Positions 1-4,709 of a stretch of DNA of 4,709 bases are shown here, piece after piece. A program made the position numbers and the translations under genes. The DNA is from a virus (lineage: Duplodnaviria > Heunggongvirae > Uroviricota > Caudoviricetes), in the IMG/VR virus record IMGVR_UViG_2690316142_000012, positions 1 to 4,709 of that record, one strand, 5' to 3'. The notes below the pieces were generated by a model that saw nothing but the letters and a program-made list of their open reading frames with translations, was not told the origin of the DNA and searched no databases. Within the stretch, counting starts at the first letter, position 1. The number at the start of each line of letters is the position of its first letter.

Positions 1-30
1 TCTTAAGTCCAAACGGACAGGAGATTTAAA

Positions 31-324
31 ATGAAATTCACTTCAACCACGAATCATGTTTTCACATTCGAACGAGTAACGCTTTGCACGATTGTTCTTA
101 TTCATAAGGATACGGGACAACAGTATGTTGTCATATTTACGGATAACAATAAAATTCGTGACTATAAGACCGGAATTGTTTCTCAGTTTGGTGAACTTAA
201 GCAGAGTGATATTGATTTAATTCTTTTCTATCGGGACGAATATGAAAAATATTTTGACTCGTTAAATAATGGCGAGGAGTATTTGAGTTTTAAAGAATAT
301 ATCGGATGTATAAGGGGAAAATAA
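31..324 (+). CDS. hypothetical small protein (97 aa), no recognisable domain
   Basis: ATG at 31 preceded by AGGAG at 19..23 (7-nt spacing); uninterrupted 97-codon ORF; AT-rich codon usage typical of horizontally acquired morons; followed by further small ORFs and a terminator at 562..590. Confidence 0.6.
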   Translation: MKFTSTTNHVFTFERVTLCTIVLIHKDTGQQYVVIFTDNNKIRDYKTGIVSQFGELKQSDIDLILFYRDEYEKYFDSLNNGEEYLSFKEYIGCIRGK

Positions 325-327
325 ATT

Positions 328-387
328 ATGAAAGGTGTGTTCAGGTTGCTGGAACAACCTGAACACGTTATCGACAATCAAAACTGA
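328..387 (+). CDS. possible micro-ORF (19 aa, MKGVFRLLEQPEHVIDNQN)
   Basis: ATG at 328 lies 9 nt after AAGGGGA (312..318), 3 nt after the stop of the 97-aa gene; too short for the ORF track; coding status uncertain. Confidence 0.2.
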   Translation: MKGVFRLLEQPEHVIDNQN

Positions 388-400
388 ATGAGGTTTTTAA

Positions 401-538
401 ATGTCAACACGACAGATCGTACAGCTTGCTGACTCCCTTGTCAAAGGCTGGGAAACCAGAATTCCGGCAATGACGTGCACGGAGTGGGATCAATTCCGGT
501 GGTGGTTAAACTACCTGCAAGGGTATGAAATGTTTTAA
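401..538 (+). CDS. possible small protein (45 aa, Trp-rich: MSTRQIVQLADSLVKGWETRIPAMTCTEWDQFRWWLNYLQGYEMF)
   Basis: ATG at 401 preceded by GAGG at 390..393 (about 8-nt spacing); ORF ends at TAA 536..538, 24 nt before an intrinsic terminator hairpin; below the ORF-track size cutoff. Confidence 0.35.
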   Translation: MSTRQIVQLADSLVKGWETRIPAMTCTEWDQFRWWLNYLQGYEMF

Positions 539-561
539 ATAACCGGGATAAATTCATATAT

Positions 562-590
562 GGGGAGAGTGTCATGCTCTCCCTTTCTTA
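562..590 (+). terminator. intrinsic terminator for the plus-strand small-gene operon
   Basis: Stem GGGAGAG (563..569) / CTCTCCC (577..583) with 7-nt loop, followed by TTTCTTATT. Confidence 0.55.
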
Positions 591-608
591 TTGGGTAGCG
601 AGTTGTAT

Positions 609-657
609 TACATATTTAGCTTTACGTTGTAAAGATTTTATTGTCTTTACAGTGTGG
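609..657. repeat. bipartite palindromic element, copy 1 (CTTTAC-GTT-GTAAAG at 620..634, then CTTTACAGTGTGG at 645..657); candidate operator
   Basis: Perfect 6-bp inverted arms with 3-bp spacer; second half-element starts 16 bp after the first element ends; same architecture at copies 2 and 3; shares ATTACATA..AGCTTTAC lead-in with copy 2. Confidence 0.7.
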
Positions 658-735
658 TGCGTTTTCCGGCGGTTGCGCTGCGCTTAGGGGTATGTGGCTT
701 CGATGATCCAGGGTATTTCGACGTAATGCGTTGTA

Positions 736-1179
736 TTACGATGTATACTCTTTAATTGCTTGCAATCTCTTTTCACGTTCGTTGCTTTGTTGGGCCTTTT
801 CCAGTTGGCTGTATATGTACTCTTCATCTTTACCCGTGAGTATTGAGCCGGAGAGCAGACGATTAATAACTATACGTTTAATTTCTGGGTAATCTTTGGT
901 TTTATCGAGTATGGACAATATGTGGTCACTGCTAAGAATTATCCCACTCCATGAGTCTAAATAGCTCTTAAAAATCACAATCATAAACACACCGAAAAGC
1001 ATTATGATGATTGTTACCACATTAATGCTAAACGTTGATATAAAGGTATACGCGGCCACACCAATTATTGCTAAACAGAGACATAAATAAATGAAACCGA
1101 TTTTGTTGCGTTGCTTTTTTTCTGCACGATCATGATCATCTATGATTTCCAGTATCTTTTCTGGGATTAGTTGAGTCAT
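736..1179 (-). CDS. small membrane protein (147 aa), two predicted transmembrane helices, ~77-aa soluble C-terminal domain; function unknown
   Basis: ATG at 1177..1179 (minus) preceded by AAGGAA with ~5-nt spacing; two hydrophobic stretches (IGFIYLCLCLAIIGVAAYTFI and VVTIIIMLFGVFMIVIF) separated by a short loop; charged N- and C-termini. Confidence 0.7.
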   Translation of the reverse strand: MTQLIPEKILEIIDDHDRAEKKQRNKIGFIYLCLCLAIIGVAAYTFISTFSINVVTIIIMLFGVFMIVIFKSYLDSWSGIILSSDHILSILDKTKDYPEIKRIVINRLLSGSILTGKDEEYIYSQLEKAQQSNEREKRLQAIKEYTS

Positions 1180-1211
1180 TTTCTTTCCTTATTTGGGACA
1201 CGGAGTGTTTA

Positions 1212-1260
1212 ATTACATAGCTTTACATTGTAAATCTATGTTTGTCTTTACGATGTAAAT
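1212..1260. repeat. bipartite palindromic element, copy 2 (CTTTAC-ATT-GTAAAT at 1221..1235, CTTTAC-GAT-GTAAAT at 1246..1260); candidate operator over the membrane-gene promoter/leader
   Basis: Same 16-bp spacing between elements as copies 1 and 3; sits between the membrane-protein start codon (1179) and a candidate minus-strand promoter. Confidence 0.7.
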
Positions 1261-1287
1261 GATGAGATGTGCAGTTAAAAGTGTCAA
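1259..1287 (-). promoter_or_regulatory. candidate sigma70 promoter for the membrane-protein gene
   Basis: On the minus strand: perfect -35 TTGACA (plus 1282..1287), 17-bp spacer, -10 CATCAT (plus 1259..1264); the transcript would start inside repeat copy 2. Confidence 0.3.
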
Positions 1288-1359
1288 TCAGATATCATAT
1301 AGTAAAATACTATATTATTTTCTATGTATCACATACACAGCGATAAAACTGGATAAATG

Positions 1360-1397
1360 ACTTACACTGTAAAGATTGAGCTGTCTTTACAGTGTGG
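1360..1397. repeat. bipartite palindromic element, copy 3 (ACTTAC-ACT-GTAAAG at 1360..1374, CTTTACAGTGTGG at 1385..1397); upstream of the hicA promoter
   Basis: Second half identical to that of copy 1 (CTTTACAGTGTGG); same 16-bp spacing. Confidence 0.65.
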
Positions 1398-1423
1398 TTC
1401 ATAAGGCATACGAATGAAATAAT

Positions 1424-1452
1424 TTGCCTTTGTGTGTATGCGTGTGTATAAT
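1424..1452 (+). promoter_or_regulatory. candidate sigma70 promoter of hicAB
   Basis: -35 TTGCCT (1424..1429), 17-bp spacer, consensus -10 TATAAT (1447..1452), about 24 nt upstream of the hicA ATG; spacer is an alternating purine-pyrimidine tract (TGTGTGTATGCGTGTG). Confidence 0.5.
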
Positions 1453-1475
1453 TATCCTCAGGTTAGGGAGGACAT

Positions 1476-1658
1476 ATGAAATCTGCTGACCTGTTGAAAG
1501 AACTGATAGCTGCTGGTTGCGAGTTGAAACGGCATAAGGCAAGCAGTCACCAGATATGGTGGTCGCCAATAACAGGAAAAACTTTTCCTGTTCCTCATCC
1601 TAAAAAGGACTTGCCGCTAGGTACTGTCAGATCGATCAAAAAAATGGCGGGGATTTAA
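1476..1658 (+). CDS. hicA: HicA-family type II toxin (mRNA interferase), 60 aa
   Basis: GGGAGG RBS 4 nt upstream of ATG; protein has HicA hallmarks: small size, a His-containing segment (SSHQIW) and the characteristic C-terminal PHPKKDLPLGTVRSIKKMAG motif; immediately followed by a HicB-like gene. Confidence 0.9.
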   Translation: MKSADLLKELIAAGCELKRHKASSHQIWWSPITGKTFPVPHPKKDLPLGTVRSIKKMAGI

Positions 1659-1666
1659 TCCCCGCC
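1646..1666 (+). other. perfect 9-bp stem hairpin spanning the hicA stop codon (GGCGGGGAT-tta-ATCCCCGCC)
   Basis: Inverted repeat read directly; hicA TAA stop (1656..1658) sits in the loop; no T-run follows, so not a simple terminator; 7 nt upstream of the hicB RBS. Confidence 0.5.
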
Positions 1667-1682
1667 GACTTTGGAGGTAGCC

Positions 1683-2120
1683 ATGTTCTTTTCTGTTGGT
1701 GTCGAAACACCGAAAGATGATCATACAGCATACGGTATCACCGTTCCGGTTTTTGATTGCTTTGATTTTGGATGTGTTTCTGCTGCTGATTCTCAGGCAG
1801 AAATACCCGCAATGGCGCGTGAAGCGATATTGGCAATCGTGGAAGAGATGGTAATAAGCGGTGCTCATTCTGTTGATGATATTCATGATGAAGGGTGTTT
1901 GACTTATTCCGCCAACCCAAATTATAACCACTGTGATAGCTGGTTTGTAATTGATGTTGATTTGTCAGAAATTGAGGGCAAACAACAACGTATTAATATT
2001 TCATTGCCTGATGTATTGATTCGTCGTATTGATGGATATGTGAGAGAAAGTGGTGGCGTATACAAAGATCGTAGCCATTTTCTGGCTCAGGCGGCACGTC
2101 ATGAACTTGCATATAAATAA
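1683..2120 (+). CDS. hicB: HicB-family type II antitoxin (145 aa) with C-terminal ribbon-helix-helix DNA-binding domain
   Basis: ATG at 1683 with GGAGG (1673..1677) 5 nt upstream (ORF track extends to a TTG at 1671); N-terminal HicB-like region and C-terminal RINISLPDVLIRRIDGYV...RSHFLAQAARHEL typical of RHH (CopG-like) domains; directly downstream of hicA. Confidence 0.85.
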   Translation: MFFSVGVETPKDDHTAYGITVPVFDCFDFGCVSAADSQAEIPAMAREAILAIVEEMVISGAHSVDDIHDEGCLTYSANPNYNHCDSWFVIDVDLSEIEGKQQRINISLPDVLIRRIDGYVRESGGVYKDRSHFLAQAARHELAYK

Positions 2121-2124
2121 AACT

Positions 2125-2152
2125 ATCCCCGCGTTGTGCGGGGATTTTTTTT
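2125..2152 (+). terminator. strong intrinsic terminator after hicB, probably bidirectional
   Basis: Perfect 8-bp GC-rich stem ATCCCCGC (2125..2132) / GCGGGGAT (2138..2145), 5-nt loop, then T8 (2145..2152); on the minus strand the same hairpin is followed by AGTTTTATTTAT, so it may also end the convergent minus-strand operon. Confidence 0.8.
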
Positions 2153-2159
2153 GATAGCT

Positions 2160-2221
2160 AACCGCTCGCCGCAGTCCAGCGACCGAGCATAGCGAGCGAG
2201 TGACGAGGAAGCGGAAGATCC
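2160..2221. other. segment resembling ColE1/pMB1-type plasmid backbone sequence (origin-proximal region of pBR322/pUC)
   Basis: From memory of the pUC/pBR322 sequence (ACCGCTCGCCGCAGCCGAACGACCGAGCGCAGCGAGTCAGTGAGCGAGGAAGCGGAAGA): the window has ACCGCTCGCCGCAG..CGACCGAGC..AGCGAG..CGAGGAAGCGGAAGA in the same order; roughly 80-85 percent identity by eye, not computed. Confidence 0.45.
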
Positions 2222-2250
2222 ACCGTTGCCAGGAGAAAAGCAGGTACGCA

Positions 2251-2571
2251 CTATGCGTTCTGCCCTAGTGATGCTTTCACAAACCACGCAGCCTGAACTA
2301 TTACGCCATGAATCCAGCGCAAATCGGCATCACGATTTTCTTTTTTCATTTTTTCGCCACTTAAAGCCTTGCTTACGTGACTTTTTACCAGATTTTCGTG
2401 TAATTCTTTTGCTTCTTCAATTGTGAAACCACCAGGCAAATTTGGCGCTTCTGCTTCCAGCGATGCCAGTGCGATTTCATAAGCCCGACGCTCAATATTG
2501 TCTCGGACGTCCAGGCTGCCTATACGCTCTCTGATTTCTTTAATCAGTTCTTTGTCGGTTAAAGTGGTCAT
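2251..2571 (-). CDS. hypothetical prophage early-region protein (106 aa); N-terminal module shared with the 136-aa protein
   Basis: ATG overlaps the stop of the upstream 171-aa gene (ATGA); AAGGAA RBS 7 nt upstream; shares the motif IALASLEAEA and a 19-nt nucleotide identity with gene 3385..3795. Confidence 0.7.
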   Translation of the reverse strand: MTTLTDKELIKEIRERIGSLDVRDNIERRAYEIALASLEAEAPNLPGGFTIEEAKELHENLVKSHVSKALSGEKMKKENRDADLRWIHGVIVQAAWFVKASLGQNA

Positions 2572-3083
2572 GCTGCGTTTCCTTCTTTCTTATTAACAAT
2601 TACACCGTCATATATTTCATTAAGGTGTCCTCTTAGCTCCATGCGCCTTAATGCAGATAACATGTAATCGCATTCAACCTGCTTATTCCCAGTAAATGGC
2701 TTATCGTCAGGATTACCCCAACAGCAATTACCCCTGGGCCATCCATGTACTTTCCGTACTCTTCCGTTAACAACGTGAAGTAATCCCCAGCCGGGAGGTA
2801 AATCCTCAACTGAAATAATTTCCGGCTCACTAATAAAGAATCGCCAGTCGCCCATGCCAAGTGAGGGATTTTTACGGAAACGCTTTTTTCTATCTGCCAA
2901 CAAGTCAGCACGAGAACACTTCGCCTCTATCAGGCATGATGCTGAATTTCTGAATCCCATAGCATCTGGCTGTTCTCCGGTACTGGTTACAGCAACAAAG
3001 CGGTCATGAAAGCAAACCTTGAACCCGTTGCGCTTAAGGAACTTGTACGCAATCTGACAGAGTTCGTGGTGTGTTAACGCCAT
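2568..3083 (-). CDS. PD-(D/E)xK nuclease-like protein (171 aa), possibly MmcB-like; tentative
   Basis: Start at ATG 3081..3083 (MALTHHELCQ) preceded by GGGAAAGGAAAGTGAT; motif order E...PD(AMGF)...(L)IEAK(CS) matches the PD-(D/E)xK nuclease core; the ORF-track N-terminal extension (MGKESD) is probably not translated. Confidence 0.7.
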   Translation of the reverse strand: MALTHHELCQIAYKFLKRNGFKVCFHDRFVAVTSTGEQPDAMGFRNSASCLIEAKCSRADLLADRKKRFRKNPSLGMGDWRFFISEPEIISVEDLPPGWGLLHVVNGRVRKVHGWPRGNCCWGNPDDKPFTGNKQVECDYMLSALRRMELRGHLNEIYDGVIVNKKEGNAA

Positions 3084-3119
3084 ATCACTTTCCTTTCCCA
3101 TGTTGTCATGTGTTAGTCC

Positions 3120-3383
3120 TTATCCTGCTGTGCTTTCAACTGATGAGGGGAATAAAATCTTTTCATCAAATCCGGCATTCATATCATGGACAGCAACACA
3201 CCAATCCATCGACGAACGATTATCAAGAGCCTCCATGATTTCATCCATGCGGCGCAGGTCATACAGGTAAATGCTTTTATCGCCAATGGTGTAAAAACCA
3301 ATTTTTTTCGGTGATGGGCAGCGATCAAGAACGTCCTGTAATTCGTTCAACCATGCCCGTTCTTTTTTTGTTAAAGTTGCCAT
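3120..3383 (-). CDS. hypothetical prophage early-region protein (87 aa)
   Basis: Start at ATG 3381..3383 (MATLTKKERAW) preceded by AAAGGAGAGTGAT; the upstream gene's stop lies 1 nt before this ATG (TGA-T-ATG); the longer ORF in the track is an out-of-frame read-through of the upstream gene's 3' end. Confidence 0.7.
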   Translation of the reverse strand: MATLTKKERAWLNELQDVLDRCPSPKKIGFYTIGDKSIYLYDLRRMDEIMEALDNRSSMDWCVAVHDMNAGFDEKILFPSSVESTAG

Positions 3384-3396
3384 ATCACTCTCCTTT
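3242..3396. repeat. 155-bp exact direct repeat, copy 1 (identical to 4555..4709)
   Basis: Base-by-base identity read from the sequence; covers the RBS and first 47 codons of the 87-aa gene; left boundary is sharp (3241 T versus 4554 A). Confidence 0.95.
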
Positions 3397-3795
3397 CCCA
3401 TGAAGCATAGCGGCGCGGCAGGCGTTCCAGCCTGTAGCGTATGCAGCCGCTTTGCTGCTGCCTTCAACTGGCGCATCCTGCCAATACATTTCATCCGGCA
3501 CTACCGGCGCTGGCAAGGCTGCGTGATAGTAGAGTGGCATAGTTTTGTACAGTGGTTCGCCAGGACTTCCGTCAACCTGATTCCATTCTTCAACCCAGGC
3601 ATCAACAACCGCTTTGCTGGTTGATACATGTTCTTCTGAATCTACATTTTGTCCTGATATACAGAACATAACTGCCTCTGCTTCCAGCGATGCCAGAGCA
3701 ATTCGTGCCAGTTCCATTTGTTCGCCACGAGTAAGTCCGTTATCAAGCGGATTTTTAATGAATAATTTGATACGTTCTTTGGTTATAGCGTTCAT
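3385..3795 (-). CDS. hypothetical prophage early-region protein (136 aa); N-terminal module shared with the 106-aa protein
   Basis: Start at ATG 3793..3795 (MNAITKERIK) preceded by AAGGAGAGTGAG; the upstream 203-aa gene's stop lies 1 nt before it (TGA-G-ATG); contains ELARIALASLEAEA. Confidence 0.7.
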   Translation of the reverse strand: MNAITKERIKLFIKNPLDNGLTRGEQMELARIALASLEAEAVMFCISGQNVDSEEHVSTSKAVVDAWVEEWNQVDGSPGEPLYKTMPLYYHAALPAPVVPDEMYWQDAPVEGSSKAAAYATGWNACRAAMLHGKGE

Positions 3796-3796
3796 C

Positions 3797-4408
3797 TCAC
3801 TCTCCTTTGATGCGAATGCCAGTAGCGCGGATTGCATCGATGACTTCAGAAACTTTGTATGCCATTACCGTTTGGTAATCATCGTGAAAATCTGTTCGAT
3901 GAAGCATGCTGCTACGTTCCGGGAGCGATATTTCCCGAGCATCCAGTTCCTTAACGCGCTCCTCCAGTTCGTAGACCCTGCATTGTTCTCTATCATCAAT
4001 CAGATATAACCCAAGACATTCGCTTTCTACCCAACCGCCAAAATCATGATCGTAACGCTCACATGAAAACTCACCGTCACCGTCCTTTGTTGGAATGGTG
4101 TAACTATCTAATGGGCCACCATATGTCGGCACATTTCCCAATGTTGGATGCTCAATCCACATGAAAAATGCACGTCCGGTTATTGGGCAAATATCTGGCC
4201 GCCATTGGTTACGAACAGCCTTGGTTTCGGATAATTCTTCAGCGTGTTGTTTTACTTCCTCAAGCTCGTATCGCTTCAGGTTTGCGATATTTGATAAATT
4301 CAGCGCCAGTACAGCCAGGTCATAAACCTCTTCGGCAGTGACATCGCTGTTCAGTCCCATTTCATGGCGATATATGATTTTTTCTACTCGTTGTTTTGTG
4401 ATCGTCAT
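3797..4408 (-). CDS. hypothetical prophage early-region protein (203 aa); possibly ead/Ea22-like, unverified
   Basis: Longest ORF in the operon; preferred start ATG at 4406..4408 (MTITKQRVEK) with GGAG 11 nt upstream; ORF track extends to a TTG at 4432; ends KGE-stop within the RBS of the next gene. Confidence 0.65.
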   Translation of the reverse strand: MTITKQRVEKIIYRHEMGLNSDVTAEEVYDLAVLALNLSNIANLKRYELEEVKQHAEELSETKAVRNQWRPDICPITGRAFFMWIEHPTLGNVPTYGGPLDSYTIPTKDGDGEFSCERYDHDFGGWVESECLGLYLIDDREQCRVYELEERVKELDAREISLPERSSMLHRTDFHDDYQTVMAYKVSEVIDAIRATGIRIKGE

Positions 4409-4516
4409 TTTTCTCTTCACTCCGATATACAAGGATTACCACACCCCCTCTGCTGATTGCGCGAGCTGGATCCCCTGGTTCCATGCCGTCAATTCCGAAG
4501 GCTTCGGAAAACGCAT

Positions 4517-4696
4517 TCATTGCCTTCTGGCGTTCATCCTGCTTACGGCGTTTACATCCATGCGGCGCAGGTCATACAGGTAAATGCTTTTATCGCCAAT
4601 GGTGTAAAAACCAATTTTTTTCGGTGATGGGCAGCGATCAAGAACGTCCTGTAATTCGTTCAACCATGCCCGTTCTTTTTTTGTTAAAGTTGCCAT
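4517..4696 (-). pseudogene. truncated chimeric duplicate of the 87-aa gene (first 47 codons identical, then 12 unrelated codons and a stop; 59 aa)
   Basis: Lies in copy 2 of the 155-bp repeat; translation from ATG 4694..4696 gives MATLTKKERAWLNELQDVLDRCPSPKKIGFYTIGDKSIYLYDLRRMD then VNAVSRMNARRQ-stop; the preceding 4698..4709 encodes a KGE-stop gene end as at 3385 and 3797. Confidence 0.4.
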
Positions 4697-4709
4697 ATCA
4701 CTCTCCTTT
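4555..4709. repeat. 155-bp exact direct repeat, copy 2 (identical to 3242..3396); continues to the window edge
   Basis: Offset of exactly 1313 bp from copy 1; true extent unknown because the window ends. Confidence 0.95.

Follow-up and report, generated by a model that had tools for sequence, protein, structure and literature searches.

We describe here a small gene of mostly conjugative plasmids which encodes a protein of 45 amino acids (aa) and whose translation start is probably covered by an antisense RNA encoded in cis, the two together making up a conserved unit. It was found in a stretch of 4,709 nucleotides (nt) filed as a virus of the Caudoviricetes (IMG/VR record IMGVR_UViG_2690316142_000012, positions 1 to 4,709), which is called the window below. 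The best reading that we can offer from sequence comparison is that a small protein of the leading region is under antisense control resembling that by FinP or Sok. An earlier note on this DNA had described positions 31-590 as a plus-strand operon of one 97-aa open reading frame (ORF) and two possible micro-ORFs of 19 and 45 codons, ending in a terminator. It overlooked the 12-bp inverted repeat at 337-348 / 355-366 and a minus-strand promoter-like site inside the 45-codon ORF, and with them what we regard as the main regulatory element, an antisense RNA predicted for the opposite strand.

The features on which the argument rests, in window coordinates, are as follows.

31..324, plus strand: gene of a 97-aa protein (WP_000673428.1, annotated as hypothetical)
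328..387, plus strand: 19-codon ORF starting 3 nt after the stop codon of the 97-aa ORF; not conserved as a gene
337..366, both strands: 12-bp stem with a 6-nt loop, GTGTTCAGGTTG-ctggaa-CAACCTGAACAC, a perfect inverted repeat with arms at 337-348 and 355-366
325..408, minus strand: predicted cis-antisense RNA of ~80 nt, start near 408 (about ±2 nt), tail ACCUUUCAUAAU
390..393, plus strand: Shine-Dalgarno (SD) sequence GAGG of the 45-aa ORF, 7 nt 5' of its ATG
401..538, plus strand: gene of the 45-aa protein (the 45-codon or small ORF), unannotated, with 4 Trp; the conserved core of the locus
416..444, minus strand: sigma-70 promoter predicted by a promoter scan, TTGACA-17-TACGAT, -35 at 444..439 and -10 at 421..416
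562..590, plus strand: intrinsic terminator from a promoter/terminator scan, stem-loop 562-584 followed by TTCTTATT

A small plasmid gene and the hairpin in its leader

Over bases 1-720 the window matches IncI2 plasmids such as pMTY9757_IncI2 at 100% identity, and according to our comparison the window is IncI2 resistance-plasmid backbone. Sequence related to it occurs in 576 of 5,426 complete E. coli genomes, nearly always plasmid-borne, and in 1,041 plasmids of PLSDB. A phage origin was considered and rejected, the phage collection searched with the window having given no match. For comparison, 21 lineages (numbered with an L below) were assembled from plasmid records, genomes and metagenomes, 15 of them close and the others distant loci; they comprise IncI2, IncX4, IncX7 and IncK2/Z plasmids, one MOBC plasmid, elements of Erwinia and Pantoea, a Klebsiella MPF_I branch and several metagenomic contigs. 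The module of hairpin and small ORF recurs outside IncI2, in IncX4, IncX7 and IncK2/Z and in MOBC, MOBF and MPF_I plasmids.

The 45-codon ORF, Trp-rich and preceded by its own GAGG as the earlier note had pointed out, is by its substitution pattern a real gene under purifying selection. The comparison of nonsynonymous (pN) and synonymous (pS) differences, which the note had proposed, gives over the 15 close lineages a mean pN of 0.106 and a mean pS of 0.575, with a ratio of 0.18. These lineages and the distant loci retain a GAGG- or GGAG-type motif, the full-length homologues have 43-49 aa, and distant members of the family keep the pattern QLA..LV.G...R(I/V)PA(M/L)...W..F.WWL.YL. A profile search of 1.8 billion representatives returned just 15 clusters, and by tblastn the ORF is found in ~1,120 of 72,556 plasmids, 93% of them conjugative. 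Nearly always there is no annotated feature under these matches, so that the note was right to expect standard annotation to miss the gene. AlphaFold models the protein as a two-helix hairpin (helices 3-15 and 26-43, with a predicted local distance difference test score, pLDDT, of 87), for which no significant fold or sequence match was found among solved structures.

Downstream, the terminator at 562..590, seen already in the earlier note, was confirmed by the scan as the end of the plus-strand unit (fold of -14.8 kcal/mol, z = -2.65). Most of the 15 close lineages have, 3' of the small ORF, a GC-rich hairpin with a T-run, of unrelated sequence; in L005 it is visibly missing.

Upstream, the composition of the locus varies. 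A gene of the 97-aa family is found in only some of the lineages and is missing from many loci that keep the hairpin and the small ORF, and in contig L020 a helix-turn-helix (HTH) gene is followed directly by these two. IncX4 shares with the window positions 40-310 and 328-542 at ~91% identity, and there the two segments, with the 97-aa gene on one side and the hairpin on the other, are separated by an inserted 116-aa gene that has a terminator of its own. Because the 97-aa gene occurs only in some lineages and L020 has no cassette at all, the invariant unit, as judged from these loci, is the hairpin, the 45-aa ORF and a terminator, and the 97-aa gene is one among a number of small cassettes that can replace each other upstream of this unit. 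The multi-component module which the earlier note had thought possible is thus not a fixed set of three ORFs. A 465-bp contig labelled Halomonas elongata (L012) is identical to IncX4 in the 116-aa gene, in the hairpin and where the small ORF begins, and is probably a contamination of that assembly.

The 19-codon ORF is indeed present where the earlier note had placed it, but as a conserved gene it did not stand up. When it was compared in the frame fixed by the hairpin over the 15 close lineages, a start codon at its position was seen in 5 (including L004, L009, L016 and L018) and was absent from 10, the ATG reading ATT in IncX4; stops are immediate in 3 lineages and fall inside the hairpin loop in 2, and the ORF has anything from 1 to 48 codons. 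Substitutions inside the ORF keep base pairing and not the peptide. Homologous loci without a start or with stops were what the note itself had named as evidence against its micro-ORFs, and by this pattern the 19-codon ORF is a by-product of the conserved hairpin and spacer sequence and not a gene. The note's own model, in which the 97-, 19- and 45-codon ORFs would all be translated as one module with the hairpin being incidental, can point to the ORFs, RBS-like (ribosome-binding site) motifs and terminator that are all present in the window, and to the start codon shared by the four lineages just named. With ten lineages lacking that start, early stops in five, changes that preserve pairing at the expense of the peptide, and many loci with no 97-aa gene, we find this model very improbable.

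The hairpin overlaps the 19-codon ORF and folds at -19.7 kcal/mol (z = -5.7), and its mirror image stands in the 5' leader of the small-ORF mRNA. In close lineages its stem is nearly invariant, with three compensatory pair changes, and the loop is variable, the central loop bases being different between nearly all lineages (the loop is CUGGAA/UUCCAG in IncI2 and UUCCAC/GUGGAA in IncX4). In distant lineages the sequence of the stem is wholly different (TGTGGCACTG, GGCGTTAGGTTG, GCCGGATTG and others), and the pairing, the 6-nt loop and the position are kept. On the antisense strand, U at loop position 2 is found in 20 of the 21 lineages and in every distant locus; a YUNR U-turn motif was considered for the loop and dropped, only this position-2 U and not the full motif being conserved.

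An invariant stem with a varying loop would also suit a double-stranded DNA operator for a dimeric regulator, such as the Xre/MqsA-like HTH protein of the same operon, with no antisense RNA involved, and the HTH gene does belong to the conserved upstream operon. However, each locus has a single palindrome, which invariably precedes the small ORF and is never at the operon promoter or any other; this disfavours a shared operator, and the distant stems, unrelated in sequence, still pair with the same loop size and position. The operator would also leave unexplained the other conserved stem with its strand-specific G·U pairs, the embedded promoter and the U-runs which are described below, and we hold it to be highly improbable.

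Further candidates in this segment were tried and rejected. GATC, which suggested a Dam site, is present in the stem of most lineages, and the versions of the window, Erwinia and Pantoea are without it on both arms. A switch in which the right arm of the hairpin would sequester the SD was dropped with its pairing unconserved and AGGTT missing in L009, L011 and L006. Minus-strand ORFs at 228..377 and 262..381 were rejected because the sequence past the hairpin is not conserved between lineages.

The predicted antisense promoter and its RNA

The predicted antisense promoter overlaps codons 6-15 of the 45-aa ORF. In the codon alignment, the codons that carry its hexamers (ATC GTA, CTT GTC AAA) show no synonymous difference among 14 of the 15 close lineages, with 3-4 codons in use at the adjacent four-fold sites, and synonymous heterozygosity is 0.075 in the hexamer codons versus 0.44 elsewhere (permutation p = 0.0003). 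Erwinia, the sole close lineage with altered hexamers, has TTTACA/TATTAT, which is still a promoter. A promoter scoring 9-10 out of 12 lies at the same codons in all 21 lineages, including distant homologues which have different residues there (TTTACA/TACAAT, TTGCGA/TATAAT, TTGACC/TATGAT, TTTGCA/TAGAAT), and where the protein is one residue shorter the site is displaced by one codon.

An RNA started from this promoter, with its first base assumed, from the position of the -10 hexamer, to be at ATG+7, would form two hairpins. Stem-loop 1 (408..370) covers the AUG and the SD of the 45-aa ORF: in the outer stem 408..402 (GUUGACA, the complement of AUG UCA AC) is paired with 376..370, the inner stem is AAAAC/GUUUU, and the apex carries CCUC, the complement of the GAGG. 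Stem-loop 2 (366..337) would be the 12-bp hairpin described above. The same minus-strand fold is obtained in all 15 close lineages, and RNAalifold gives this two-hairpin structure independently. By pair counting in the close lineages, 97.5% of cells are paired and 6 pairs show compensatory changes, while none of 500 shuffles was as good and sliding the partners brought pairing to 26-50%.

The distant loci served as a blind test, the covariance model having been built from the 15 close sequences only. Every distant locus was matched by it over the full length on the minus strand, each match ending exactly at ATG+7 (45 bits in L024, 32 in L028, 30 in L021, 29 in L029, 28 in L026 and 20.5 in L023), and three of four distant antisense RNAs fold alike despite their different sequence. 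In L028, L023 and L024, stem-loop 2 is followed on the minus strand by 8-9 U in the next 14 nt, and by this form it is a canonical minus-strand intrinsic terminator there. A search of Rfam with window positions 320-410 gave no match at E <= 1.

Several points weigh against the antisense RNA. Its promoter, start and 3' end are all predictions. When the protein sequence was fixed and synonymous codons were randomised, the observed promoter score was attained in 5-28% of trials per lineage, so each single lineage is weak evidence for the promoter; the joint probability is ~3e-7 as a product over seven diverged lineages, which are not fully independent. Covariance-model alignments are biased towards the model's own structure, and in L023 stem-loop 1 was not recovered by energy minimisation. 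In the window lineage the 3' end is uncertain because the tail ACCUUUCAUAAUUU is not a canonical U-run. Finally, stem-loop 2 alone gives no strand: in L006 and L023 the hairpin has one imperfect pair, which reads G·U on the plus strand and is mismatched on the minus.

Some of these points would fit a structure that acts on the plus strand only, as an intercistronic stabiliser of the mRNA or an RNase III site, with the protein sequence giving rise to the minus-strand promoter as a side effect: on either strand the hairpin pairs perfectly, its G·U is functional only on the plus strand in the two lineages just named, and random back-translations are promoter-like at the rate given above. Stem-loop 1 speaks for the other strand. 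Its outer stem is paired at 96% on the minus strand versus 70% on the plus strand, with 29 G·U pairs on the minus strand which are A·C mismatches on the plus, and the antisense RNA of the window folds far better (-30 kcal/mol, z = -6.8) than the sense strand (z = -3.7). Together with synonymous sites frozen exactly at the hexamers and the canonical minus-strand terminators of three lineages, it suggests that a purely plus-strand structure is improbable.

The conserved fold might also belong to single-stranded DNA (ssDNA), as a priming or ssDNA-promoter signal of the transferred strand on its entry into the recipient. The transferred strand is expected to be the minus-strand sequence here, and leading regions are known to carry structured ssDNA promoters (PMC11541004). 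However, stem-loop 1, which as RNA has -5.5 to -8.9 kcal/mol, is marginal with DNA parameters (-1.2 to -3.2 kcal/mol, no better than shuffles), which disfavours such a role; the 12-bp stem is too short to hold both a -35 and a -10 box, and the double-stranded promoter hexamers and the U-runs would have no explanation. We see next to no chance for it.

Proposed mode of action and known antisense systems

It can be suggested from these elements how an antisense RNA would control the 45-aa gene. The small ORF would be read by upstream transcription passing through the variable cassette genes, here the 97-aa gene. No conserved sigma-70 promoter of its own was found in the 200 nt upstream in 21 lineages, though an ssDNA promoter or one of non-consensus sequence is possible; promoter-like plus-strand sites (score >=9) within 200 nt 5' of the hairpin occur in 5 of them, with varying positions and sequences. 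The antisense RNA would pair with the leader, the SD and the start codon of this mRNA, probably starting by loop-loop contact at the hairpin, whose loop is lineage-specific, and as an outcome translation would be blocked, the duplex cleaved and the mRNA destabilised, or both.

The closest analogue is FinP/traJ, by a resemblance that is architectural only. As general background and PMC10470590 have it, FinP of F-like plasmids is a cis antisense RNA of ~80 nt which forms two stem-loops and can pair with the leader and RBS of a plasmid gene adjoining oriT; its pairing is thought to be loop-initiated, and its loop sequences vary between plasmid alleles. The RNA predicted here would have the same size and two-hairpin layout, with an anti-SD at the first apex, lineage-specific second loops and a promoter inside the target gene. 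Unlike FinP, it has no sequence or Rfam relationship to that RNA, its target is a 45-aa protein without a Pfam or NCBIfam family and not the TraJ activator, and the unit is found with MOBP, MOBF and MOBC relaxases and with MPF_T, MPF_I and MPF_F systems, because of which a transfer-specific role is not implied. IncI2 plasmids do encode a ProQ/FinO protein.

The copy-number antisense RNAs, such as CopA/CopT of R1, the Inc RNA of IncI1 and the repR antisense RNA of the IncI2 plasmid pHNSHP45 (PMC8053102), are alike in that a stem-loop antisense RNA pairs with a leader, and these same IncI2 plasmids use the copy-number RNA together with the ProQ/FinO protein PcnR (PMC8053102). They differ in locus and target (repA, ~8 kb off in pMTY9757), and there is no leader-peptide coupling here.

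With hok/sok, SymR and IstR-1 the unit would share a small ORF whose initiation region is under a short, constitutively promoted antisense RNA, and with hok/sok also the location in leading regions. A toxin-antitoxin (TA) system of type I, with the 45-aa protein as a toxin, the RNA as its unstable antisense antitoxin and post-segregational killing as in hok/sok, would be a special case of the antisense control proposed here. It is favoured by the antisense RNA which in silico lies across the translation-initiation region of a small protein, by adjoining type II modules (HicAB, ParE/DUF6290, RelE) and the hok gene of L026, and by type I systems being known from leading regions. The protein itself, however, is not a hydrophobic membrane peptide and is predicted to be soluble: its maximal 19-residue hydropathy is 0.38 versus 1.7-2.5 for Hok, TisB and LdrD, and its grand average of hydropathy (GRAVY) is -0.34. 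It has no match in Pfam, NCBIfam or PADLOC, toxin families included, no conserved sigma-70 site of its own was seen in the 200 nt upstream, unlike what is typical for type I toxin genes, and no conserved overlapping frame resembling mok is present. We therefore consider a type I TA system unlikely.

Control of a leading-region protein by a FinP- or Sok-like RNA agrees with where the gene is found. In L026 the genes for ParB-like, PsiB, PsiA and Hok proteins are followed by the small ORF, with hok 1 kb 5' of it; in L028 the order is an antirestriction gene, the small ORF, mobA and traI; in L006 the small ORF stands just before traM, and in L004 just before ddp1 and the relaxase gene. Its orientation is that of psiB, psiA, hok and the antirestriction genes, as in the orientation rule for leading-region genes (PMC11541004), so that in these four lineages both location and orientation are those of a leading region. 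For the IncI2 window the assignment is weaker and rests on synteny, because several minus-strand genes intervene there between the unit and the relaxase gene.

The template of the antisense RNA would be the strand synthesised in the recipient, and the incoming single strand could not yield this RNA. A new transconjugant would therefore be likely to make the small protein in a burst and then to silence it, which we find an attractive reading. We may tentatively go one step further and suggest an entry timer, in which the small ORF is transcribed from the transferred (T-) strand or fresh DNA before the antisense RNA is made, the 45-aa protein briefly acts on a host target while the plasmid establishes itself in each new host and is then silenced, and the loop serves as an address, its lineage-specific sequence preventing co-resident plasmids from silencing each other's copy. 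Such a timer is possible, though we would sooner doubt it than rely on it.

Literature searches for antisense RNAs of IncX4 and IncI2, for the regulation of leading regions and for operons with a J-domain gene gave no description of this locus. In the IncI2 and IncX papers searched, the repA antisense RNA and the modules relBE, hicAB and hok/sok are all that is described. IncI2 and IncX4 plasmids are commonly reported carriers of mcr-1 colistin resistance (PMC8053102), and the hairpin/45-aa unit is kept in them and in ~1,100 other enterobacterial plasmids, mostly conjugative, with the protein and the RNA missing from Pfam, NCBIfam, Rfam and the annotation of nearly all matching records. With it the leading region, in which early expression is now mainly credited to single-strand promoters, gains a candidate for a post-transcriptional switch. 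The locus may also be taken as a warning that a short ORF over a perfect hairpin can be a by-product of RNA structure, with an adjoining real gene of 45 codons escaping the gene callers.

The 97-aa gene and the plasmid surroundings

The 97-aa ORF has, as the earlier note had read it, a good RBS (AGGAG at 19-23, 7 nt upstream of the ATG). We take it for a gene complete in itself, and not for the end of some longer gene, because its homologues form a coherent protein family of ~99 aa (75 cluster representatives at 55-98% identity), which by the searches made is an orphan plasmid family. No significant profile or fold match was obtained for the protein in Pfam, NCBIfam, PADLOC or PDB; its C-terminal half matches a PHROG of unknown function, and its structure model is of low confidence, with weak fold matches only. 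The promoter, which the note had expected outside the window, is likely TTGATA-17-TATTAT, found on upstream extension at L001 8032-8060, ~60 nt 5' of the ATG and just beyond the window edge. In lineages without a full copy of the gene, stretches like the C-terminal ~30 residues of the family (…YEKYFD…LS.KEYI.C) are seen just 5' of the hairpin (L016 4805-4891, L017 961-1047, L009 5803-5892, L003 2708-2842), and these may be what is left of the gene, or else a C-terminal domain which other cassette proteins have in common with it.

The region is flanked in pMTY9757 by repA on one side and the nikA-like/relaxase genes on the other, and stands 3' of a plus-strand block of J-domain, 180-aa, 84-aa and 80-aa Xre/MqsA-like HTH genes and 5' of HicAB. 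This four-gene block upstream of the small ORF, encoding J-domain (~171 aa), 180-aa, ~85-aa and ~76-80-aa Xre/MqsA-like HTH proteins, stands at L001 5901-7552, has equivalents in L002-L006, L014, L018, L020 and L024, and is common to plasmids with unrelated replicons and relaxases.

Further along the window, the gene of a predicted 147-aa membrane protein (736-1179, minus strand) encodes a product 71% identical to its pMTY9757 counterpart, and since bases 1-720 are 100% identical the backbone is mosaic here. The protein has a weak NCBIfam match, under the cutoff, to the STM3941 family.

A palindromic element, TGTAAAG-N10-TCTTTACA, occurs in 6 copies in 17.8 kb of IncI2 backbone, where 0.14 would be expected (window 628-651, 1229-1252 and 1368-1391; L001 4601, 4646, 7596, 8720, 9321 and 9460). 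It is always intergenic: two copies stand immediately 5' of a MipZ/ParA-like gene and further ones precede the 147-aa gene and hicA, and the copy at 622-657 is also terminator-like by score. Taken together, these palindromes look as if a regulator of the whole plasmid used them as operators or as centromere-like sites. At the hicA/hicB junction, Rfam ncS025 gives a sub-threshold match on the minus strand at 1638-1713 (28 bits, gathering score 46), which covers the GGCGGGGATTTAATCCCCGCC hairpin and most likely reflects only this terminator-like hairpin.

In the right part of the window a direct repeat of 158 nt (3239-3396 and 4552-4709, 99% identical) bears the RBS and the 5' end of two small minus-strand genes, and a junction GCCATATCAC(T/C)TTCCTTTCCCATG is repeated between consecutive minus-strand genes, being found also at 3079-3102, 3379-3402 and 3775-3808. 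This pattern suggests that the small minus-strand genes form a translationally coupled array which recombines at its junctions.

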